From assembly GCA_964401055.1 (NCBI GenBank), contig CAYNWW010000001.1, forward strand, positions 41,689 through 103,002: a stretch of DNA of 61,314 nt, given 5' to 3'. Below, piece by piece: positions 23,630-35,128 of this stretch (the stretch's first letter is position 1; each line of letters starts with the position of its first letter). The notes below the pieces were generated by a model that saw nothing but the letters and a program-made list of their open reading frames with translations, was not told the DNA's origin and made no database searches. The translations under genes and the position numbers were made by a program. Source of the stretch: an uncultured Candidatus Saccharibacteria bacterium (GTDB lineage Bacteria > Patescibacteriota > JAUYIX01 > CAYNWW01).

Positions 23630-24196
23630 TTAGTGATCAAACTTCTCTTCAGCAAGTGGCTTGCTCACGCCGAGAGAAATTTGCCGCAGTTGTGAACTGG
23701 AAATTTTCACCACTACTTTTTTGAGGAGATTAATGTCCTCCATGGTGTAATAGTTTGGCTCTTCGTGTGTTTCATCAACGCGCCAATTTGGCTCCTGTTC
23801 AAATATAAATTGGATGCTCGGGTTTTGCGCTGCTTCATTGAGTTGAAATTCAAACTTGCTGCAAGGAAGGGTGGTAATGAATACTTTTTCGCCATTCGTT
23901 TTCCATTGAAACGAAAGATACGGCTCAGATTGAATTTTCCCCGTGACGGAGCCGGCGAAGAAAAAGCTTCCGCCGGAGAGCGAGCCGTTGATTCCTTGTG
24001 AAACTCCTGTTGAAAGGAGTGGTTTTTCACCTATAACCCCTGCATTGTTCAAGGTATCAGCAAGAGCTGCAATGCGAGCTAATCTCTCATTCTCCCGCTG
24101 TTGCGCATCATGCGCAACAGCGTATTTTATCAACGAGATAAGCGCCGCAATAATTACAATCGCAATGAGCCAGCGAAGCATAGCGTCTTTTGTCAT
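23630..24196 (-). CDS. Hypothetical N-terminally membrane-anchored protein
   Basis: The ATG at 24196 is preceded by AAGGAGGT. One TM helix (WLIAIVIIAALISLI), then about 150 aa with no motif I recognise. Confidence 0.6.
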   Translation of the reverse strand: MTKDAMLRWLIAIVIIAALISLIKYAVAHDAQQRENERLARIAALADTLNNAGVIGEKPLLSTGVSQGINGSLSGGSFFFAGSVTGKIQSEPYLSFQWKTNGEKVFITTLPCSKFEFQLNEAAQNPSIQFIFEQEPNWRVDETHEEPNYYTMEDINLLKKVVVKISSSQLRQISLGVSKPLAEEKFDH

Positions 24197-24243
24197 GAGC
24201 AACCTCCTTGTTGATCCGCTAGACATATTATAGCGGAAAGAGC

Positions 24244-24272
24244 ACTATATCATTGAATTTTTATCTCGTCAA
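24244..24272 (-). promoter_or_regulatory. Sigma70-like promoter TTGACG-17-TATAGT for the 23630..24196 gene
   Basis: Read on the minus strand: -35 at 24272..24267, -10 at 24249..24244, 17-nt spacer. Confidence 0.35.
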
Positions 24273-24287
24273 CGGCGGATCTGAAAT

Positions 24288-24318
24288 TAAAAAACACCTC
24301 CGTGAGAGGTGTTTTTTA
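24288..24318. terminator. Intrinsic terminator downstream of rpmA (bidirectional form)
   Basis: AAAAAACACCTC-CGTGA-GAGGTGTTTTTT. Confidence 0.65.
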
Positions 24319-24329
24319 ATTTGTTGAAT

Positions 24330-24668
24330 CTATTTCTTCTTTGCCGCAGGAGCCTTTTTCGCCACTTTCGCTGGTTTCTCAACTTCTTCGTTCATCGGCA
24401 CTACATGCACATACTGTGCGCGGCGGAGTTGGCCGTTGAAGCGCGCGGTCTTGCGGATGGTAAATTTGACCATGCCGTCTTGGAGCGCGAAGAGGCTGAA
24501 GTCTTTGGCGACGGCCACGTTTTTGCCGGCGCGGAAGCGAGTGCCGTGCTGGCGGACGATGATGTTGCCTGTTTTGCAGACCTGGCCGCCAAAGATTTTG
24601 ACGCCAAGGCGCTGGGAATTACTGTCGCGTACGTTTGCTGTAGAGCCACCGGCTTTTTTATGTGCCAT
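24330..24668 (-). CDS. rpmA: 50S ribosomal protein L27 with a Lys/Ala C-terminal tail
   Basis: [27 protein letters not shown]. Confidence 0.96.
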
Positions 24669-24688
24669 TGAGGTGAATTAAAAATGCG

Positions 24689-25966
24689 TTATCGTGCGCT
24701 TGTAGCGCGGGATCGCGCCTGGAAAACAAAAATCTCTCGACCCACCACCTGGTCTTCGCGCGCGTAGAGCAGCGAATTCCGCGGTGTTGCTTGTTCGGGT
24801 CGGAGGTACTGAACAACATCATAGCCTAGCGCTCGGACTTTGTCAATAAATCCGTCGCTCATGACAAACGCGCGTTTGCCCTGCTTGTCTTGGTAAAACG
24901 GGAAGGTGATCGCGATGCGTGCGCCCGGTTTGAGGACCTCCAGAAACGCTTGCAGCGAGCGGCCGATCAGCGGCTCGAGGGTGCTACGTAATTGAGCGAT
25001 TTGGGTGTCGGAGGGAAATGTCTCGAGCGCCGGGCCGAGCGTGGACTCGGTGGCGATGGCGTCGAAATAGTGTTTTTGAAAGGTTTTGCCCACGTCTCGG
25101 GCATCTGATTGGGACAGACGTGGCGGGTTGACCGTGCGCTTGATGCGCTCGAGTGCGGTTGTCACAAACCAATCCGCATTTTTTTGCGCGAGTTCGATCG
25201 CGTACGGGTCGCGGTCCGAGCCGGTCATGTTGTAGTCCGCGAGCATACCTTCTTGCAGCACGGTGCCGACGCCGCAAAACGGGTCAAGGATGCGCGCGCC
25301 CGGCTTGGCGCCTGCGAGGTTGAGGAGGATTTGCGCGAGCTTGGGTGGGAGCATGCCGATTTTCATATTGCGGCGCGGGCGGCCGACATCGCGCAGAGTG
25401 TAGAAATCAATGTCTTGGATGCCGCGCGTGATGCCGCAAAAGAGCAATCCTTTGTCGACAAAAAAGCAGAGTTCGGCGCCGCCTTCTTCGAGCAGGCGGT
25501 TTTTGTTGATTGAGCCGGCGTCGAGTGAGGTTTTCTTTTGTGCGCGGACAAAGCGCACGCTGCGGGAGTGCGCGCGCAGTTCGTTTTTGATCGACATGCC
25601 GACGGCGCGCATTTCATCCACGGAAAATCCGTGTCCGTATGCGCTGGTGCCGACCGTGATTTTTTTGCTTTTCATCGCGAGCAGCGGCGCGGTGATTGCC
25701 GCGAGGTTTTTTTGGAGAAAATTTACTTTGTTGCCGCCGATGACCGGGGATTGCCAAAACACTTCAATAATCTTGACCGTGCCACCGAGCGTGTTGAGCA
25801 ATTGTTGGGGCTGTGGAAAACTTTTTTCGTCTCCCTCGGTCTTGACCAAGCAGATGGAATTGCTGATTTGCTGCATCTGGTGCGAGATTGAGCGGTTGGC
25901 AAGAGCCGCGCGAATTTCAGCGACCGAGAGTTGGGGATTGGATCCGAGGACAAATGCGATCGTCAT
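24689..25966 (-). CDS. SAM-dependent RNA methyltransferase with a THUMP-like N-terminal domain (Trm11/RlmL/UPF0020-like)
   Basis: The ATG at 25966 gives MTIAFVLGSNPQLS. SAM motif I is DPFCGVGT. The 5' extension of the ORF to 26272 is rejected because it overlaps the divergent gene. Confidence 0.7.
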   Translation of the reverse strand: MTIAFVLGSNPQLSVAEIRAALANRSISHQMQQISNSICLVKTEGDEKSFPQPQQLLNTLGGTVKIIEVFWQSPVIGGNKVNFLQKNLAAITAPLLAMKSKKITVGTSAYGHGFSVDEMRAVGMSIKNELRAHSRSVRFVRAQKKTSLDAGSINKNRLLEEGGAELCFFVDKGLLFCGITRGIQDIDFYTLRDVGRPRRNMKIGMLPPKLAQILLNLAGAKPGARILDPFCGVGTVLQEGMLADYNMTGSDRDPYAIELAQKNADWFVTTALERIKRTVNPPRLSQSDARDVGKTFQKHYFDAIATESTLGPALETFPSDTQIAQLRSTLEPLIGRSLQAFLEVLKPGARIAITFPFYQDKQGKRAFVMSDGFIDKVRALGYDVVQYLRPEQATPRNSLLYAREDQVVGREIFVFQARSRATSAR

Positions 25967-26004
25967 TTTAACAAAATTTAATCTTGGGTTGCTAGAGTGA
26001 ATAT

Positions 26005-26394
26005 ATGAAAAGGTTTTTCGCAAAGTATAAGCGCGAGCTCGGCACGACCTTGTGTGTCCTGTTGGTCGGCTCGGCGTCATTTGCGCTCGGCCGGATTTCG
26101 GTCCTGTATCACCAGGAGCCGCTGCACATCGCCGACGGTGCGCCGATCGAGCAACGAATTCAGGAGTCGTTGGCGCGGCTGCAAGAGGGGAGTGCGCCGT
26201 CTGTTTCGTCCTCGCCTGCCGATACCGCCACTCCTCCCAAAGGCGCATTTGTGGCCAGTTCCGGAGGGACAAAGTATTATCCCATAGATTGCAAGACTGC
26301 GCAACGGATTAGCGAAGAAAACCGCGTGTATTTTCAAACTGCCCAAGATGCAGAAGCGGCGGGGTATTCACTCACGACCGCGTGTAAAAACTAG
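26005..26394 (+). CDS. Hypothetical membrane-anchored protein with a C-terminal Ada-like ('sunset'-type) domain
   Basis: N-terminal TM helix. The C-terminus KYYPIDCKTAQRISEENRVYFQTAQDAEAAGY resembles the ..YH..C....I...N...F.S..EA...GY domain. Confidence 0.55.
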   Translation: MKRFFAKYKRELGTTLCVLLVGSASFALGRISVLYHQEPLHIADGAPIEQRIQESLARLQEGSAPSVSSSPADTATPPKGAFVASSGGTKYYPIDCKTAQRISEENRVYFQTAQDAEAAGYSLTTACKN

Positions 26395-27266
26395 CGTTTC
26401 TTTTTGGATTTCGCGCCGACGATTTTTTCGTATTCTTTTTTCATCAGCAGTGCGTCCTGCTCTTTGTCCGGGCTTTCGCAAATTGCGATTCCGCCTACGC
26501 CGCAATCCACAAACGCGCGCGCCAGTGCTTTGTAATCAAAATCGCATTCGGCGAAGTTGAGGTGGTTTTTTTCACCTTTTGTGGTGTAGGCGATGCCAGC
26601 AAATTGGATATGAATATCTTCGACGGCCTCCGACCCCAATTCGCGCCGGATCTGCTCAAATACACCGCAAAAACCTTCGTACGAATTAACCGCGCCTTGC
26701 GTACGTCCGACCAAATGTGCGAAATCAATGCACGGGCGGATGTTGTCGCGCAATTTGGACAGCTCGATGAGTTCCTCCAATGTGCCAAACACGCCCAATT
26801 TCCCACCGATTTCCGGTCGCAAGATGGCTGGGATTTTTTGCATACGCAACTCGTCGGCGACTTCGAGGAGATTTTTCTTTACATGTTCATAGGCTTCTTC
26901 CGGCGCTTGTTTCAGATAGGATCCTGGATGAAACGCGATATCGCGTGCGCCCGCCAGCGCACCGATTTTGGCAGCTTGCAGCAGCATGGATTTGGAGCCG
27001 GCGCCATCTGAGCCGGGTTTGGGATTGAGGTTGATATAATACGGCGCGTGGACGGTGAGTTTGATGCCGGCAGTCTCGACTTCTTTGCGCACGCGGGCGG
27101 CGAGCATGGGCTTCATAAATACGCCATGCACGAAGGCGAGCTCCATCGCCTGGAGGCCGATTTTTTTGACAAACGCGACGTTGGTCACGCTGTCGAGTTT
27201 TTTTGGTGCGAGCGGCGGCTGGGCGATGCCCGAACTGCCAAAAATGAGTGATGCCATATCAATCAT
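26391..27266 (-). CDS. nfo: Endonuclease IV (Nfo) family TIM-barrel protein
   Basis: HAPYYINL, FHPGSY, RPEIGG, CIDFAHL and ICESP align with the Endo IV metal-ligand blocks. Its stop overlaps the convergent gene at CTAG. Confidence 0.75.
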   Translation of the reverse strand: MIDMASLIFGSSGIAQPPLAPKKLDSVTNVAFVKKIGLQAMELAFVHGVFMKPMLAARVRKEVETAGIKLTVHAPYYINLNPKPGSDGAGSKSMLLQAAKIGALAGARDIAFHPGSYLKQAPEEAYEHVKKNLLEVADELRMQKIPAILRPEIGGKLGVFGTLEELIELSKLRDNIRPCIDFAHLVGRTQGAVNSYEGFCGVFEQIRRELGSEAVEDIHIQFAGIAYTTKGEKNHLNFAECDFDYKALARAFVDCGVGGIAICESPDKEQDALLMKKEYEKIVGAKSKKKR

Positions 27267-27298
27267 GTTAACGTCTTGTCTTCTAGGGTATCATGAGA

Positions 27299-27326
27299 AT
27301 TGATTTTTACCCAATTTTCATAGTAT
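27299..27326. repeat. Left copy of a promoter-like direct repeat flanking the AT-rich insertion
   Basis: ATTGATTTTTACCCAATTTTCATAGTAT. 20 of its first 23 positions match 29481..29503. Confidence 0.45.
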
Positions 27327-27393
27327 TCTTAGGTTAAATCGCTTGCTTTGAATGGAAATAGAAACATAGTAAAAACGTAAAATCATTTTAAAC

Positions 27394-29454
27394 ATGGAAA
27401 GATCTCCTGAGTTTGAAAAATATATAGATAGTGTTCGAAAACTTCCGCAAGAAACGATTGTAGAGAAGAGTGAAAAGCAAGAAAAGGCAAAGATTTTGCG
27501 CATGGAAGTCATGCTTGAGAATGCTGCGCTTACAGAGGAGCTTGTTGAATTTTTGAAAGACGACCCTTTAATTACCTCAGATGATTTAATCGCAAGATAT
27601 AATAAAAAGGGTCGAAAAACGCGTGATCCAAAGATTACCTCGGCCGATGTTGTTACTAAGTTTAAAGAAAAAAACCCTCAAAGGATGATAGCTCACCCAG
27701 AAGTTGTACAGGTTTATGTCAAGGAATTACTAGAGCAAAGAACGCGATTCTTAAAAATAGTGGAGTTTCTTAAGCGATCTACTTTTGATTCCCCTCAGGC
27801 TTTAGGCGGTAAGTTGTATGAATACTATATTCCTCAAAAGGGAAAAATAAACAAAAGGCCCCAGGGACCTATCCTAGTTGATACATCTTTCCCGCTCTCG
27901 GTGGTTATGTATGTTTTTGATGAATATGATTTTAGCAACATTGACTCACGCGTCGACTTGGGAGGATTTTATAATCCAAGCGCTAAATTAGACCCTCAAA
28001 AAGTTGATTTTAAAGAAACATTCCCTTTAATTGTTCTTAATGGCGCAGGAATTGATGCTAAGGAATTGACAAGACAAAAGGATCATGAGAAGGGACATGT
28101 TGAAAACAAGCCTTTTCGAGATACATTCTCACAAATGAAAAAGAAGGCGGTCTGGGGTCATCCTCAATATTTTCCAAGTTTTGAAAGCCTAGAGAGCGCG
28201 CAACAGGAATACGAGCTTGAAACTAATCCTCATGCTGCGAACCTAAAAGAGAAGACGAGACCTGCTTTAGAAATCGCATTGCTTTTGGGCAAAGACGAAA
28301 TCCTTGCAGATTTAAATTCAACAGGAAGTATTACCCAATACGTGCCTAGGTTAATCGAACGAGGAGGAACTTATGATTACTTTGAGAAAGTCATGAAAAT
28401 CAATCCCGGCTCGAAAATGCATAACGAGCTTTGGAGTGAATACGAATCCATTATTGCTTCATCCACAAAAGCTGCTGATCGAGTTCTTCGTGGATATGAT
28501 AAATTGTCACAAATACTTGAGCCAGAAGCTAAAAAAGTTATTACAAAAAAAAGTGAGCTATTTAGGTGGGTATTGGCTCAAATTCCGCTTGATAGATGGG
28601 AAAAGCAGCTGAACGAAACACTTTTTGTGAAGGAAGCAGAGGAGATAGATGAATTTTTTGAACTATATGAGAACTACAAAGATGATGATAAATCACAAGT
28701 AAGACAGGGATTAGTTTTTTTGCAGAAAAAGTTAGAAGCTGAAGGGGCTACAAAGTCTCTGCATCTTGAATTGGCAAAAACACTGGATACAATAAAAGAT
28801 TATGATAAAAAAGCAAGTGCTGAGGTTGTTGTTTCTTTTATAAAACAAGGGAGTGGCGAGGGTTGGCTAAATGCAGAAGAGGTAATTACAGAATGGAATA
28901 GCAAATTTCCTCTTTTGGATTCCGCAATAGAAAGAGATCATCTAAATAAATGGAAAGAAGCTATAACACAGGGCGATTTTAAAAAAGCATTCAATTTATT
29001 AAAAGATGATCCATTGCGCGGGTCTGAGGTTGATTTTAGCGATGACTTTAAACGATCTGATCCATATAAATTATTAAGCCTGTCTCGGCTAAAGGGCGGT
29101 GCAAATTTACAATTCAAAAGGATTCTGAAGACTTTTAAAATTGCTAAGGCGCAGTACGAAGCATGCAAAGATGTTGTCATGACGCCTCAAGCGCTAGAGA
29201 ACCTTTCTTCTAGTCAGCAGGAAGAATTACTCAGAACCACTGTGGGTGCTTTGGAAAACTTATACAATAATGTTGAGGCTATTGCTTCCCATCAGTCCGT
29301 TGAGAAATATATTCGGAAGGAGTTGAGGAATATTCAGGAATCTCTTCAGGATAATCGCTTCCTTTTCGATAGGCAAAAACTAGCTAAATTAGAAGAAAGA
29401 AAGCTAAGATTATTAGAGGCAGGCCAAAGATTAGAACATCGGATGAAGCCCTGA
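27394..29454 (+). CDS. Large orphan protein (686 aa), Lys/Glu-rich and helical, with HEKGH...EILAD (gluzincin-like) motifs
   Basis: A long uninterrupted ORF in strongly AT-rich DNA. HExxH at 28084-28098 and ExxxD at 28297-28311. No family recognised. Confidence 0.7.
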   Translation: MERSPEFEKYIDSVRKLPQETIVEKSEKQEKAKILRMEVMLENAALTEELVEFLKDDPLITSDDLIARYNKKGRKTRDPKITSADVVTKFKEKNPQRMIAHPEVVQVYVKELLEQRTRFLKIVEFLKRSTFDSPQALGGKLYEYYIPQKGKINKRPQGPILVDTSFPLSVVMYVFDEYDFSNIDSRVDLGGFYNPSAKLDPQKVDFKETFPLIVLNGAGIDAKELTRQKDHEKGHVENKPFRDTFSQMKKKAVWGHPQYFPSFESLESAQQEYELETNPHAANLKEKTRPALEIALLLGKDEILADLNSTGSITQYVPRLIERGGTYDYFEKVMKINPGSKMHNELWSEYESIIASSTKAADRVLRGYDKLSQILEPEAKKVITKKSELFRWVLAQIPLDRWEKQLNETLFVKEAEEIDEFFELYENYKDDDKSQVRQGLVFLQKKLEAEGATKSLHLELAKTLDTIKDYDKKASAEVVVSFIKQGSGEGWLNAEEVITEWNSKFPLLDSAIERDHLNKWKEAITQGDFKKAFNLLKDDPLRGSEVDFSDDFKRSDPYKLLSLSRLKGGANLQFKRILKTFKIAKAQYEACKDVVMTPQALENLSSSQQEELLRTTVGALENLYNNVEAIASHQSVEKYIRKELRNIQESLQDNRFLFDRQKLAKLEERKLRLLEAGQRLEHRMKP

Positions 29455-29480
29455 TTTACACCATTTTTCACTATGTAAGC

Positions 29481-29510
29481 ATTGATTTTTCGCCAATTTT
29501 CCTGTATACT
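29481..29510 (+). promoter_or_regulatory. Right copy of the direct repeat, which is also a near-consensus promoter TTGATT-17-TATACT
   Basis: -35 at 29482-29487 and -10 at 29505-29510. The ATG of the next gene lies 7 nt after the -10. Confidence 0.45.
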
Positions 29511-29517
29511 GCCGGCT

Positions 29518-30693
29518 ATGTCTCATTCTCGCTTATATCTTGATTATGCAGCTACCACATCGCTTGATCCGGCGGTGCGCGCAGCCATGGCGCCCTACGA
29601 AACGCAGGCCTTTGGCAACGCGTCCTCGGTGCATCAGTTTGGTTTTGATGCCCTCGCAGGTGTGGATCGCGCCAAGGATCAGGTGGCGGAATTTTTGAAT
29701 TGTCTGACGTCGGAAATAATTTTTACCAGTGGCGCGACCGAAGCCAACAACTTGGCTATCCAGGGTGTGGTACTCGCAGCACATGGTGGCCTCACGCCTC
29801 GCGCCGACCAAGTGCGTCGGCAACTCATTACCACCGCGATCGAACACCCGTCGGTGCTGCATGTGTATCAATTTTTGGAGCAGCAGGGGTTTGAAGTGGT
29901 GTATCTGCCGGTGAATCACGAAGGCATTGTTGAGCTCGACGCCTTGCGTGCCGCGCTGAGCGAGCGGACGCTGTTGGTGTCCGTCATGCAGGTAAATAAT
30001 GAAATCGGCACTATTCAGCCCATCACTCGCATCGGCCGTTTGGTGAAAAAAGTGGGCGCGGTATTTCATGTGGATGCGGTGCAGGCTGCTCCATACTTGT
30101 CGTGCGATGTGGATCAGCTTAAGGCGGATTTGCTCACACTTTCTGGGCACAAGATACGCGGTCCGAAAGGGGTAGGGGTGCTGTATGTGCGCAAGGGAAC
30201 GGCAATCAATCCGCTCATGCATGGCGGTGAACAAGAATATGGATTGCGGCCTGGTACGTATGCGACGCCTGCGATCGTGGGGTTTGGTGAAGCGGTTGCG
30301 CTGCTTCAGGCGCGTGATCGCGCTCAAGAGGCGAGTAGTGTCGCACAAGTGAGAGATACGGGGGTAGAGAAGCTGCTTGCCGCGTTCCCGTCCGCGCATA
30401 TCAATGGGTCTCGCGCGGCAGCTGAGCGTACGCCCAACAACATCAATATTACATTTCCCGGCGTCGATGCAGAGAATTTGATCTTGCAACTGGATCAAGA
30501 CGGCATAGCCGTATCAACCGGTTCGGCGTGTTCGGCGGGCTCATTGGAGCCGTCGCACGTGTTGCAAGCGATCGGTTTGTCTGCCGAAGACGTGCGCTCG
30601 AGCATCCGCATCACGATCGGGCACGAGACGACGATACGGGAGATGGATGTATTGGTCGCCGCGATCGCAAAAAGAATCACCCAGGTCAAATAA
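29518..30693 (+). CDS. Cysteine desulfurase (class V aminotransferase, NifS/IscS-like)
   Basis: LYLDYAATT, the PLP lysine in SGHKIRGPKGVG, and the catalytic Cys in GSACSAGS. Confidence 0.9.
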   Translation: MSHSRLYLDYAATTSLDPAVRAAMAPYETQAFGNASSVHQFGFDALAGVDRAKDQVAEFLNCLTSEIIFTSGATEANNLAIQGVVLAAHGGLTPRADQVRRQLITTAIEHPSVLHVYQFLEQQGFEVVYLPVNHEGIVELDALRAALSERTLLVSVMQVNNEIGTIQPITRIGRLVKKVGAVFHVDAVQAAPYLSCDVDQLKADLLTLSGHKIRGPKGVGVLYVRKGTAINPLMHGGEQEYGLRPGTYATPAIVGFGEAVALLQARDRAQEASSVAQVRDTGVEKLLAAFPSAHINGSRAAAERTPNNINITFPGVDAENLILQLDQDGIAVSTGSACSAGSLEPSHVLQAIGLSAEDVRSSIRITIGHETTIREMDVLVAAIAKRITQVK

Positions 30694-31023
30694 ACAGCGA
30701 GGTCACGGCGACCTAGCAGAGGTAGTAATGTTTTGGTGAGCCTAAATAAATAATGTCGCACAATATATCTTATGCGACAAAATAAGTCCAAATCAGCCGT
30801 CAGAACCTCATGTATGCCTGCTTTTGTCATATGTGGCTGCTTTGCATAATTGGCACCTCATATATCGAGTGAAACCTATTGTTCTATTCCTCTCTGGTTA
30901 AAAGGAAAAAATCTACCTTGTGCACAGTCGTCATTTGCATTGAATTCACTATTTTATTATGATGACATCAATACATTAAGTATCGAGCCTCGAGGTATAA
31001 ATTATTTTTTAACAGAATCATAT

Positions 31024-31365
31024 ATGAATTTTTCCACGGAGTTGCTCAAGGGATCTGTGCGTACATTGATACTATCGCTTCTGGCAGATGGCGAAATGTA
31101 CGGCTATCAACTCATCAAAGAAATGCAATCGCGCAGCGTGAACGAATTCCACCTCAGCGAAGGCAGCCTCTACCCTGCCCTGCACGAGCTCGAGCACCAA
31201 AAGCATATCTCGAGTCGGTGGGAGAAAATCGACGGCAAGCGGCCACGTAAATATTATGCGATCACACCTAAGGGGAAAAAAATCCTCGCCGGCCAGCTGC
31301 AGGAATGGAATTCATTTACGGCCGCGGCCAATCGTATTTACAAGCAGCTTGCCCAAGCAAATTAA
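31024..31365 (+). CDS. PadR-family transcriptional regulator
   Basis: LILSLLADGEMYGYQLIKE...SEGSLYPALHELE......W......RKYY.IT..G. Confidence 0.85.
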   Translation: MNFSTELLKGSVRTLILSLLADGEMYGYQLIKEMQSRSVNEFHLSEGSLYPALHELEHQKHISSRWEKIDGKRPRKYYAITPKGKKILAGQLQEWNSFTAAANRIYKQLAQAN

Positions 31366-31368
31366 TCC

Positions 31369-32133
31369 ATGCCTATGAATATTCAATTACGTGAACTCGC
31401 CTCTCGAGTTGCCCAGGCCACGCGGTTTGAACCTGAGGTGCAGGAAGAAATCAAGCTTGAGATCGAGTCACATCTCGCCGACGAAGCCCAAGAATTGGCG
31501 CTCTCCGGTACGACGCCTGACGAAGCCACTCGGCAAGTCATCGTCCGGTTTGGTGATCCGCAAGCGGTCGGCCGCGAACTTGCTCTTGCAAAACGACCTT
31601 GGGCGCGCCTCCCACTGATCGGGCCGCTCATCTACTATTGGCCGTTGCGGATGGGGATGAAGCTGTTTTTTTTGCAGATCGGCGCGTTGGTGTCCTGGGC
31701 TGTTGGGTTGATCGTCGTGAACACAATTGCATCATTTGTGACAGCAGCCTTCGCCAGTGCATATCTGCTGTTTTGGCTAATGCCGTTTATTATAGCAATT
31801 CCTCTCGCGTACAACTTTGCCATTGTTCGCTGGCTTCTTCGTATTACAACAACACGCGGCAGCGCGTGGGAAATATGGGTGATATCTGAGCTCCCATTTT
31901 TCATCTGGTTTGTAATGGATATCTCAAATGTTGCGCTGCGCCTATTGACGCAGGGCAAGAGCCCGTTGTTGTCAGAAGGATATGGGTATATGTATAGACT
32001 CATTTGGACGCGATTTGAGTACATCATTGGTCCGCAATTTATCCTTTTCGCTATTGTGTTTATCGTATGCTGGACAGTTAGATTGTCCAGAATGTATCGT
32101 TCGCTTCTTACAACTAAAAAGCAAAACGTATGA
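31369..32133 (+). CDS. PadR-associated membrane protein (N-terminal helical sensor/anti-sigma-like prefix domain plus 4-5 TM helices)
   Basis: ...EIESHL.DE...L...G..PDEA....V.RFGDP..V, followed by hydrophobic helices. Starts 4 nt after padR. Confidence 0.6.
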   Translation: MPMNIQLRELASRVAQATRFEPEVQEEIKLEIESHLADEAQELALSGTTPDEATRQVIVRFGDPQAVGRELALAKRPWARLPLIGPLIYYWPLRMGMKLFFLQIGALVSWAVGLIVVNTIASFVTAAFASAYLLFWLMPFIIAIPLAYNFAIVRWLLRITTTRGSAWEIWVISELPFFIWFVMDISNVALRLLTQGKSPLLSEGYGYMYRLIWTRFEYIIGPQFILFAIVFIVCWTVRLSRMYRSLLTTKKQNV

Positions 32134-33146
32134 GCAAAGAATTTCCTGATTTTTCAAATCCTAAGCGCATTCGTATCCGCTTTTTTGTCAGCGTCTTTGT
32201 GCTGGTCGTTGTCTTATTGGTGGGGCTTGGTTGCTTTCAATTCGTATTGACAAGGTCATATCCTCGCCCAACCGCCCATCCGGGCGATTTTAGTGAAGTT
32301 GTTAGCAAAAATTATCTGTTGATCCAGGATCATGCTGGTGATGCTTCGCCCATACAAGCGGAAATTGTTCGTCTTGATGGGAACACACTGAAGAAGGCGA
32401 GCCATATCGACGCATTTTATCCGGGTGGTGACAAAACTCTTTTGCAATCTTGGCAAGGCGTGGAATTTTCAGGTAATCCCGTGTTGGAATTTTTTGATTC
32501 TTCGACCGGTGCATTTCAGGCGCTTGTAGCCCCAACAAATAAGATACTAACTCAGGTCTCGTATTCTCCGGACATGAAGTATTTGCTGGTTCAATTTGGC
32601 GATGAGGCATTTATCCAAGATGTTCAGAGCGGCAACTGGAAAAATATCGGTGAATTTTCTCAGCTGCCTGTAGGGACAAGTGCCTTTGAGTGGACGCAAG
32701 CCGACTCGCATGCACTGTTTGTGGTTGTGCTCGGATATGCTAAAGATGGCAAAGAGGAACAGCGAGCGCGGTATGTGATTGATCCGAGAAGTTGGAAGAT
32801 CTCGCCGTACGCTATGGATGCATCGTACGGACCGCTCAAGGTCAACAAAAGACTCGTTGAAGAATACGAAAGTCCGCTGATTGAATTGAAACGTCCGCTT
32901 TTTGTCGGTTGGGCAAAAATTATTTCAAAAGCAAGTGGAGAAATAAAACTCTCGTGGTTTACCAGTCGTAATAGGATTGCTGTTAATTCGTATACAATAA
33001 AAGGCGATGCGAGCCACGTACTTCTCCAGCTTGATAATCGCATGGGCTTGCTTGATCTCGAAAGTGGTCGCTATGCACAGCTGTTTGAAAGCCCGTTTTT
33101 TCATCCAGAAATAGGAATTCCTACCGTGGATGTATTTTCGTTGTAG
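32130..33146 (+). CDS. Hypothetical membrane-anchored protein
   Basis: ATGA overlap with the upstream gene. One TM helix, then about 290 aa that look beta-rich. No motif recognised. Confidence 0.55.
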   Translation: MSKEFPDFSNPKRIRIRFFVSVFVLVVVLLVGLGCFQFVLTRSYPRPTAHPGDFSEVVSKNYLLIQDHAGDASPIQAEIVRLDGNTLKKASHIDAFYPGGDKTLLQSWQGVEFSGNPVLEFFDSSTGAFQALVAPTNKILTQVSYSPDMKYLLVQFGDEAFIQDVQSGNWKNIGEFSQLPVGTSAFEWTQADSHALFVVVLGYAKDGKEEQRARYVIDPRSWKISPYAMDASYGPLKVNKRLVEEYESPLIELKRPLFVGWAKIISKASGEIKLSWFTSRNRIAVNSYTIKGDASHVLLQLDNRMGLLDLESGRYAQLFESPFFHPEIGIPTVDVFSL

Positions 33147-33166: not shown

Positions 33167-34423
33167 TTACGGCAGCACTTTCATCGGGTCGATCGCTACC
33201 CCATTTTTGCGAGTTTCAAAATGAAGATGGGCTCCTGATGATGTGCCAGAGCCAATTGAGCCAGGTCGTCCGCCGCTGGTGCCAATAGTTTGGCCAGCGC
33301 TTACGCGGTCACCTACATTCACCGCAAATGAGGTCATGTGCCCATAGATCGTTGTCCATCCCCCATCGTGCAAGATGATCGCGTATTGATACTGCGTGGT
33401 TCCTGTATAGCGCACTTTTAGAATAACGCCAGCCGCCGCTGCCGCTATTTGTGTTCCTTGAGGCGTGGGGATGTCGAGGCCGGGATGGCAGCCGTTTGGA
33501 TACAAGTACTTAAAAGGATATCCTGGGTCGCAAAATCGCGTAGAGATGCCGCGAAGTGGCTGCACCGGCCAGCTGAAAATGGCGTCGCCATTGGGATCAA
33601 TGCTGTCCAGTGGTGATGTTTGGCCGGAGGAAGAATTTTGTCGTTGGCGCTCCTCTTCCTCTTTTATCTGACGCTGAATATCCGCGATGTCTGCATTTTC
33701 TTGATCGACTTCGGCCTTGGATTCTTTGAGCAAATTTTGGTAAGTCTGCTCATCGTTATGAGTTTGGTCAAGGAATTCCTGTTTGGAGGCTTGCTGTGAT
33801 TCAAGTGCTGCTTCTTGGTCTTTGAGTTGTTTTTGCAGCGCAGTGACTTCATCTTTTTGTGCGCCGAGCGTTTGGTTTTTCCATTCTAGATCAGCCTTGA
33901 GCGATTGGACTTGGTCAAGGGTGGTTTGCCCTTGCTTTTGCAAATCCTGAACGTATGCGCTTTCGTTCAAAAAATCCGAGAACGAATTGTTTTTTAGCCA
34001 AATCTCAATCGGGTTTTCTTGATCGCGCTCAGCAAGATCTACAATAAATGCCGCAAGTAACTGCTTTTCTTTGGCAATGTCTTTTTCCTTTGCGCTGATT
34101 TCGAGATTGGTTTTGTCTATTTCTGACTTCAAGAGATCGATTTTCTTTGCGTTTGCATCGATTTCGGCTTGGGTTTTGTCGATGTTTGTGGAAAGAAGTG
34201 AAATTTCATTTTCAATTGTCGCTGCCTGTCCTTGCTTTTCGCTGATCTGTTTATTGTATTGATCAATCTTATTTTGTTGATCAAGGAGGGCTTGGCGCTT
34301 TTGATCGATCTGATTGTTTAAGTCATCGAGTGTTCCCGCACTTGCCTCATGAGGAATGGAAAAAAGACTTGCAGCAAGAAAAAATAATATTCCACCAATC
34401 AGAGATGCGCGCGCGTGCTTCAT
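33167..34423 (-). CDS. M23 (LytM) peptidase with a long N-terminal coiled coil (EnvC/PcsB-like architecture)
   Basis: Signal/TM segment, about 250 aa of heptad-rich Q/K/E sequence, then HPGLDI....G..I.A...G and GAHLHFE. Confidence 0.85.
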   Translation of the reverse strand: MKHARASLIGGILFFLAASLFSIPHEASAGTLDDLNNQIDQKRQALLDQQNKIDQYNKQISEKQGQAATIENEISLLSTNIDKTQAEIDANAKKIDLLKSEIDKTNLEISAKEKDIAKEKQLLAAFIVDLAERDQENPIEIWLKNNSFSDFLNESAYVQDLQKQGQTTLDQVQSLKADLEWKNQTLGAQKDEVTALQKQLKDQEAALESQQASKQEFLDQTHNDEQTYQNLLKESKAEVDQENADIADIQRQIKEEEERQRQNSSSGQTSPLDSIDPNGDAIFSWPVQPLRGISTRFCDPGYPFKYLYPNGCHPGLDIPTPQGTQIAAAAAGVILKVRYTGTTQYQYAIILHDGGWTTIYGHMTSFAVNVGDRVSAGQTIGTSGGRPGSIGSGTSSGAHLHFETRKNGVAIDPMKVLP

Positions 34424-34432
34424 GTAAAAATG

Positions 34433-35128
34433 CTAGATGGTCTTGTATGACTTCACAATAGTAAGAATCGCTTCGCGAATCTTGTCGTAGTCGGCATAGG
34501 TATAGTTTGCATCCATTGATGAACCGTATTCAATTTTGACGCCGTTTGAAAGCGTAATCACGAGTGTTTCGTTGTGGACGCTGAGTTTGTCAGTCGCACC
34601 TTTTTTGGTAAAGCCTGTTGCTGTGTATTCTTTGCCTGCAACGGTGATTTTTTCCGTTTTTGCTGTCTTTGCCCCTGTTACTGAACGAAGACAGCTGGAT
34701 GTCGCGTCCTTGCTTGCGATTTTGACATAGCCCTGGTGGTGCTCGATGACAACGCAAGAGTCGTCGTCATCGGTAAGTACCGCACTTGCTGGGTAGCTAA
34801 TCTGATAACCCGCGACCGTGTTTTTAAAATCAGTGGTTGTGACCGTCGGCGCAGCCGAAGTGTTCGTGGTGGTTTTTGTGGGTTGTACCGAGGTCGTTGA
34901 ACTTGTTTTCTCGTCTGCAGTTGATTTTGCAGGTGCGTCGTTGATGAATTCTTTGATAAGCAAATTTTGCTGTTCAAATTTTTGAGACATAATCCAATCG
35001 CTTGCCACAAACAGCACCATGCTAGTGAGTGACAGCACAATCAATACGATCAAGAGAGATGTGGTTGGCGCGTGCTGGTGTTTTTTTGGTGCGCTTGCGG
35101 TAGGCTCGACGATTTTTTGCGACGGCAT
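34433..35128 (-). CDS. Hypothetical membrane-anchored protein with a Thr-rich linker
   Basis: TM helix LLIVLIVLSLTSMVLFV, a TTSVQPTKTTTNTSAAPTVTTT linker, and a C-terminal domain of about 110 aa. Confidence 0.55.
   Translation of the reverse strand: MPSQKIVEPTASAPKKHQHAPTTSLLIVLIVLSLTSMVLFVASDWIMSQKFEQQNLLIKEFINDAPAKSTADEKTSSTTSVQPTKTTTNTSAAPTVTTTDFKNTVAGYQISYPASAVLTDDDDSCVVIEHHQGYVKIASKDATSSCLRSVTGAKTAKTEKITVAGKEYTATGFTKKGATDKLSVHNETLVITLSNGVKIEYGSSMDANYTYADYDKIREAILTIVKSYKTI

Follow-up and report, generated by a model that had tools for sequence, protein, structure and literature searches.

Positions 27267 to 29520 of a 61,314-nt stretch of contig CAYNWW010000001.1, from an uncultured Candidatus Saccharibacteria bacterium, form a block of low G+C content (GC) between the divergent genes nfo and nifS. 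The block holds a single open reading frame (ORF) of 686 amino acids, here called ORF686. The whole 61,314-nt stretch is referred to as the window, and coordinates are positions in it unless stated otherwise. The block is probably a lateral one-gene insertion between nfo and nifS that carries a putative zinc peptidase as its cargo and is accompanied by two copies of the nifS promoter. Composition steps at both ends of the block, the site is empty at the syntenic position in relatives, the joins are real and at least two strains carry the gene. The direct repeats at the two ends are non-random, and the single ORF encodes a conserved motif.

A low-GC block at a site that is empty in relatives

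The features on which the analysis rests are as follows.
26391 to 27266, minus strand: nfo, the left flank, endonuclease IV-like with an AP_endonuc_2 TIM barrel; GC 0.527.
27267 to 29520, no strand: low-GC block read as the insert, between the nfo start and the nifS start and including both AT-rich junction regions; GC 0.376, delimited by the breakpoint fit and by its absence in the relatives L017 and L020.
27296 to 27326, plus strand: left repeat copy L, AGAATTGATTTTTACCCAATTTTCATAGTAT, with a -35-like TTGATT; 30-60 nt from the nfo start and facing ORF686.
27394 to 29454, plus strand: ORF686, the sole gene of the insert; the family domain, which is conserved, spans residues 1-430 and is followed by a helical C-terminal extension (residues 430-686) predicted with low confidence.
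28084 to 28098, plus strand: codons of the conserved motif H231-E232-K-G-H235 (HExxH); E302, at 28297-28299, is the candidate third metal ligand.
29446 to 29477, plus strand: third repeat copy T, which is degenerate, runs over the ORF686 stop codon and stands in tandem with R (gapped alignment, p ~0.003-0.01).
29478 to 29510, plus strand: right repeat copy R, AGCATTGATTTTTCGCCAATTTTCCTGTATACT, with TTGATT at 29482-29487, a 17-nt spacer and TATACT at 29505-29510; read as the nifS promoter.
29521 to 30693, plus strand: nifS, the right flank, a NifS/IscS-type cysteine desulfurase gene; GC 0.559.

The GC of 27267-29517 was 0.376, compared to 0.540 in the 2 kb to its left, 0.559 in nifS and 0.495 in the window as a whole. 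A maximum-likelihood two-breakpoint fit over 26001-31000 placed the composition breaks at 27241 and 29550, and the same step was visible in a sliding GC profile. The strongest tetranucleotide outlier of the 61 kb was the 2-kb segment starting at 27501. An abrupt change had been described in the original prediction, which was made from the letters of the stretch alone and relied on G+C counts in 60-nt lines (35/60 at 27121 and 37/60 at 29581 against 17/60 at 28501). These counts were reproduced, and the sliding GC and tetranucleotide profile that had been proposed as a check returned both the step and the block as top outlier. The statement that the block contains exactly one ORF was likewise correct, ORF686 at 27394-29454 being the only long ORF in it.

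ORF686 has the lowest GC (0.381) and the lowest GC at third codon positions (0.325) of the 70 ORFs in the window. Recoding with the synonymous preferences of the host raised its GC to 0.460, and the codon-choice deficit of -0.079 was the most extreme among 61 genes (z = -2.7). The composition of ORF686 is foreign-like beyond the effect of its amino-acid content. Members of its protein family have a GC of 0.34-0.40 whatever the GC of their hosts, a value equal to that of the host in two low-GC contigs of the Candidate Phyla Radiation (CPR), L022 and L024. Judged by this range, ORF686 seems to have come from a low-GC CPR donor and to have remained unadapted to its 50% GC host.

The arrangement was recovered from other data. 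Both junctions lie on one 6,539-nt Logan contig of an independent run, which matches 25500-30063 with 0 mismatches at a uniform depth of 9.5. An independent Joint Genome Institute (JGI) contig of 207,527 nt, from another sample, has an arrangement identical to that of the window, and short contigs that span a single junction were found in at least seven further runs (X2, X3, X5, X7, X11, X13 and X30). A chimeric join, which the original prediction had named as a way for its claim to fail, is ruled out by the three independent assemblies and the junction contigs from the other runs.

Two contigs from these runs differ from the window within ORF686. A 741-nt contig of run X3 tracks the window over 26817-27473 and then continues into 84 nt of unrelated sequence (CAAAATAGGTTTGACAACAC...), which represents either an alternative junction inside ORF686 or a depth-4 assembly artefact. 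In one Logan contig of run X7, one base is missing from the A-run at 27604, a position inside ORF686 that falls in a copy-specific 23-residue insertion (residues 70-95). The missing base may mark a frameshifted allele or be a homopolymer error.

The nfo-nifS site was then compared between relatives. The lineage is poorly sampled, and four informative relatives were obtained through a protein-index search and contig look-up. On a 57-kb contig, L017 (nfo 58% identical) has nifS and nfo as divergent neighbours with a spacer of 106 nt and the site empty; its gene order is nifS, nfo, a small ORF, a UPF0020 methyltransferase gene and L27. In L020 (nfo 51%, nifS 56%) the spacer is ~120 nt with no gene between nfo and nifS, and gene order is kept from PfkB and RecJ via L27 and UPF0020 to nfo and nifS. 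L016 (nfo 76%, nifS 64%), the closest relative found, carries an unrelated 153-aa ORF at the site (L016 1867-2328). This ORF lies in the opposite orientation to ORF686, co-oriented with nfo; searches of Pfam and PHROGs returned no match for it and no direct repeats were found flanking it. The fourth relative, L019, is a second strain of the window organism and has ORF686 at the site. Accordingly, the adjacency of nfo and the desulfurase gene without the ORF, which had been suggested as a check, was observed in L017 and L020, with other cargo in L016. Scans for nfo among species-representative genomes of GTDB and JGI metagenome contigs gave only relatives of at most 41% identity, or a fragment of 49%, that lacked synteny with nifS.

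The simplest history drawn from these loci would start from an ancestral spacer without a gene, into which the window lineage and L016 each gained one separately, and the nfo-nifS spacer may be a recurrent landing place. Beyond nifS, a block with PadR, HAAS-domain and 338-aa genes (30850-33146, GC 0.44-0.49) lies between nifS and an M23 peptidase gene. In L021 the M23 gene directly follows nifS, and in L017 a single 163-aa ORF precedes it. From this comparison, the block appears to be a second gain specific to the lineage, next to the same backbone.

Strain variation was examined in a 21-kb alignment of window 19517-40634 with L019. Identical blocks are interspersed with blocks of 3-9% divergence, making the two strains a mosaic, and the insert lies within the longest identical block. 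There is no difference over 26719-28967, and further differences up to the end of R (29510) are limited to 28968, 29367 and 29503. Both differences within ORF686 are synonymous. The mosaic boundaries around the insert, at 26718 and 29560-29778, lie inside nfo and nifS, away from the repeats, which points to ordinary homologous recombination and not to exchange at the repeats. As read from this alignment, the mosaic indicates frequent homologous recombination in this CPR population. A gene-specific sweep of the insert (~0.1% divergence versus 3-6% in the adjacent flanks) was considered and dropped in view of the general mosaic, in which 23717-25216 and 30917-32416 are further blocks with zero differences.

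Neither an empty site nor an excision or circular junction was present in the 16 runs searched. The sludge runs X31 and X33 have the neighbouring genes covered at ~2x but gave nothing over 26172-29511, the part with nfo and ORF686, at 80% likeness; they are too sparse to call absence. Elsewhere in the alignment, 33317-35116 is hypervariable against L019, with 25-35% divergence and a 63-nt indel between adjoining blocks of 0-2%. This stretch covers the M23 peptidase gene (33167-34423, minus strand) and a gene for a 231-aa protein (34433-35128, minus strand). Replacement of an allele, or diversifying selection acting on a cell-wall hydrolase, may lie behind it.

Promoter-like repeats at both ends of the block

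The sequence ATTGATTTTTNNCCAATTTTC was located exactly at 27299 and 29481, where 0.05 matches with up to 3 mismatches are expected by chance. L and R are identical at 19 of 21 positions, or 21 of 24 when extended, and consist of two identical cores, ATTGATTTTT and CCAATTTTC, with a variable centre between them. The best ungapped match between the intergenic regions of L and R was equalled in 1 of 5000 Markov-1 simulations and in 0 of 5000 permutations (p ~2e-4). Of the 465 upstream-region pairs that the window provides, L-R was the sole outlier with a score of 15 (runner-up 11, mode 6-7), and the repeat is therefore not the general promoter consensus of the organism. No further copy of the motif occurs in the upstream regions of the 61-kb window, and none was found in the nfo-nifS spacers of the relatives. 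The third copy, T, scored above chance in gapped alignment, its score being reached in 29 of 3000 shuffles against L and in 8 of 3000 against R.

Several claims of the original prediction bear on these repeats. The two copies stand where it had placed them, with 20 of their first 23 positions matching, and the weaker third copy over the ORF stop was also found, weaker than L and R and marginally significant (p ~0.003-0.01). The similarity of L and R, which was to be discarded if no better than chance for AT-rich promoter DNA, is well above chance by the simulations, the permutations and the 465 pairs.

The sole other weak match to the motif in the window lies at 33986-34006, inside the coding sequence of the M23 peptidase. 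It recurs there in L019 (2 mismatches) and, with 4 mismatches, in L017's M23 gene, and is a coincidence of coding sequence and no promoter copy.

Scored as a sigma-70-like promoter, R reaches 9/12 with TTGATT-17-TATACT, and its end lies 10 nt before the ATG of nifS. The nifS promoters of L016 (TTGATT-17-TATAAT) and L017 (a perfect TTGACA-17-TATAAT) lie at the equivalent place. Given the match and its place, R is by position the predicted working promoter of nifS. The promoter assignment made in the original prediction agrees with this, its description as near-consensus being slightly generous. L lies 67 nt upstream of the ORF686 ATG and overlaps the likely nfo promoter on the opposite strand; its position corresponds to the bidirectional nfo/nifS promoter region of relatives with an empty site. 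The candidates for its -10 box are TAGTAT at 15 nt and TATTCT at 18 nt from TTGATT. Both fall below the threshold of the promoter scan, in which L went uncalled because of these 15- or 18-nt spacers.

In the window, the distance from the nifS -10 box to the ATG is only 10 nt and contains no Shine-Dalgarno sequence (29505-29523). The corresponding distance in L016 and L017 is 26-29 nt, and L017 has GGAG. On these spacings nifS may be translated from a leaderless mRNA in the window lineage.

The insertion that we favour would have proceeded as follows. A donor of lower GC, probably another CPR bacterium, would have supplied a single gene that entered the short divergent nfo-nifS spacer of a wastewater lineage of Patescibacteria (CPR) with ~50% GC. 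The event would have left two copies of a piece of ~24-30 nt of the nifS promoter, comprising the -35 box plus spacer. L would remain at the ancestral promoter position beside nfo and would now read into ORF686. R, with a good -10 box, would stand directly before nifS, which would thereby retain its own promoter. The scan found no terminator-like site between the ORF686 stop and nifS, so read-through from L into nifS would also be possible. The original prediction was of a foreign cassette inserted into, and duplicating, the promoter region. Composition, synteny and the joins uphold the insertion; duplication by the insertion is suggested by the position of the copies.

Alternatively, the repeats may be functional look-alikes kept by selection, with one regulator or sigma factor serving both ORF686 and nifS and with ORF686 having either arrived with such a site or evolved one later. 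This would account for the location of all three copies where promoters would stand, on the coding strand of the genes that follow, for the tandem placement of T and R, 32 nt apart in a manner that resembles operator arrays, and for the fact that the copies differ exactly where promoters tolerate it, at the spacer centre and around the -10 box. However, the motif occurs at no other upstream region of the window and in none of the relatives' nfo-nifS spacers, nor is any inverted-repeat symmetry of the kind typical of operators visible. We regard this explanation as unlikely, though it deserves to be kept in view, and prefer copies of the nifS promoter left by the insertion.

ORF686 and its protein family

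ORF686 had no match in Pfam, NCBIfam or PHROGs, and the PADLOC defence models contained no family for it up to E = 1. Twelve homologues with 24-34% identity over the first ~420 residues were identified, and only one of them, a Candidatus Yanofskybacteria protein, is named. When 1.84 billion representatives were searched with a profile, the family grew to 199 clusters with a typical length of 410-550 aa; a look-up of the clusters yielded no taxon names for members. All members were found in metagenomic contigs only, and the single named one belongs to a CPR bacterium. For the flanking nifS, the best named relatives come from Patescibacteria, Pacebacteria and Minisyncoccia.

Residues H231, E232, H235, D301 and E302 are invariant in 13 sequences. 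Across 67 diverse members there is no variation at H231 and Y327, and E232, H235 and E302 each show at least 90% conservation. A confident structure model of the domain (residues 96-433) reached a predicted local distance difference test score (pLDDT) of 84 and a predicted template modelling score (pTM) of 0.84, and the full-length model a pLDDT of 68. In the domain model a four-stranded sheet is followed by a long helix with HExxH and then by a helix at 282-310 that carries E302, the arrangement seen in gluzincin peptidases. The last 250 residues, helical and poorly predicted, belong for the most part to the window copy alone. From motif and model, the family is most likely a gluzincin-type zinc metallopeptidase, and the ORF686 product is cytoplasmic-looking.

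Foldseek searches of PDB and BFVD with the full and domain models gave nothing significant (best E 0.17-0.7). Zincins were matched only at E = 0.6-6, namely anthrax lethal factor, a Bacteroides zinc peptidase, IrrE-like proteins and M48 proteins. Sequence and profile searches of PDB returned nothing relevant, only helical low-complexity proteins being matched. The gluzincins thermolysin (M4), anthrax lethal factor (M34) and ImmA/IrrE (M78) resemble the ORF686 model in having the HExxH helix after a small beta-sheet and a Glu on a later helix. ORF686 differs in its lack of a significant family match, in a Glu that comes 67 residues after the motif and in its large helical additions.

The gene neighbourhood of the family was different in every genome examined and no conserved partner gene was found. 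No second copy of ORF686 is present in the window, no phage, viral, plasmid-like or defence link was found for it, and a literature search gave nothing specific.

Mode of insertion and comparison with known systems

The original prediction noted that no integrase or transposase is present. The annotation likewise showed no integrase, transposase or other recombinase family, either on the insert itself or within the 21 kb that surround it. A small integrative cassette would not need its own enzyme if a recombinase encoded elsewhere in the genome or by a helper acted in trans at a promoter-like attachment (att) site, in which case L and R would be the hybrid attL and attR. The imperfect direct repeats with their identical cores and the lack of a recombinase on the insert are what such a cassette would leave, and the different cargo at the same intergenic site in L016 and the new neighbourhood of the family gene in each genome examined also agree with it. 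On the other hand, the L016 cargo is without flanking direct repeats, the site has no other copy in the window or at related loci, and the context is not viral, phage or plasmid-like. The edges of the strain mosaic (26718 and 29560-29778) are in the flanking genes and not at the repeats, and no run contained an empty-site or circular junction. Site-specific integration is thus improbable as an explanation. A bolder proposal, that the repeats are attachment sites of an undescribed kind of single-gene insertion in CPR bacteria, with a promoter as the copied target and a mobile CPR-specific zinc protease family as cargo, is a long shot as well. If true, the cargo would be expressed at once and the resident gene would retain its promoter.

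A further explanation is that ORF686 is ancestral and was lost independently in the relatives, its low GC resulting from amino-acid content and weak selection. Direct repeats are able to mediate precise deletion, the family is AT-richer than its host in two other genomes and part of the GC deficit does come from amino acids. This would nevertheless require at least three independent losses, in L016, L017 and L020, with a separate gain in L016. In addition, the synonymous-site deficit of ORF686 is the most extreme in the window and family members elsewhere are never located between nfo and nifS, and ancestral presence is accordingly given very little credence. An assembly chimera of two organisms' DNA, to which the metagenome source and the abrupt composition change at both ends could have pointed, is refuted by the independent Logan and JGI assemblies and the junction contigs from other runs and has a negligible chance of being correct.

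Lateral insertion with two promoter copies remains the favoured explanation, and several observations weigh against it. The nearest insert-free relative has an nfo that is no closer than 76% identical, and therefore the exact boundaries and a single-copy ancestral promoter are unseen. The integration is not accounted for by a mobility gene, a terminal inverted repeat or an att-like palindrome; the best inverted pair at the block ends, 25 nt at 72%, does not amount to the terminal inverted repeats of a transposon. The imperfect repeat of 21-24 nt is far longer than usual target-site duplications, and the degenerate copy T does not fit a simple one-step duplication. By consensus L is a weak promoter that was uncalled in the promoter scan. 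Roughly one third of the GC deficit of ORF686 comes from its K/E/L-rich amino-acid content, with the rest from codon choice. Family members also lie 5-8 GC points below their hosts in L001 and L005, so that the low GC may partly be a trait of the family itself. The peptidase assignment depends on a short motif and on topology, with nothing significant in Pfam, NCBIfam, PDB or Foldseek. Four pieces of ORF686 in low-depth contigs of two wastewater metatranscriptomes are weak evidence of its transcription, these contigs being shallow and possibly derived from contaminating DNA.

The locus provides a well-documented single-gene gain in a reduced CPR genome, for which an empty site, one holding other cargo and two strains with the gene are available. 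As each gene stands behind a copy of the same promoter, the newcomer could be expressed without silencing its housekeeping neighbour. The analysis also flags an unannotated HExxH...E family of ~199 clusters, which is without a Pfam model or structural relative and is a candidate new zinc peptidase family. Proteases of CPR bacteria may matter for their episymbiotic way of life.

With respect to known systems, transposon target-site duplications similarly place a direct repeat of the target on both sides of an insert. They are usually 2-15 nt long and exact, whereas the repeats here are at least 21-24 nt, imperfect and without terminal inverted repeats or a transposase. Campbell-type or site-specific integration leaves attL and attR, and integrase-less modules such as integrative mobile elements exploiting Xer (IMEX) and dif modules use host recombinases. 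The likeness to these modules consists of recombinase-less cargo and imperfect direct repeats of ~20-30 nt with identical core segments. The insert differs from them in having a single gene as cargo and in lacking dif-like palindromic arms, further copies of the site and an excision product; on inspection, L and R do not have the Xer/dif form of a 28-nt site with inverted 11-nt arms and a 6-nt spacer in multiple copies.

Genomic islets are small horizontally acquired single-gene insertions in a conserved backbone. The ORF686 block shares with them anomalous GC and codon usage, absence at the syntenic site of relatives, short direct repeats and an intergenic location between housekeeping genes. 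It is distinguished by repeats that coincide with a promoter and by having no tRNA target, integrase remnant or nearby insertion sequence (IS). A laterally acquired one-gene islet is a well-known kind of event and a fairly ordinary gene gain that does not overturn current ideas, and it is the promoter duplication and the protein family that deserve to be followed up.

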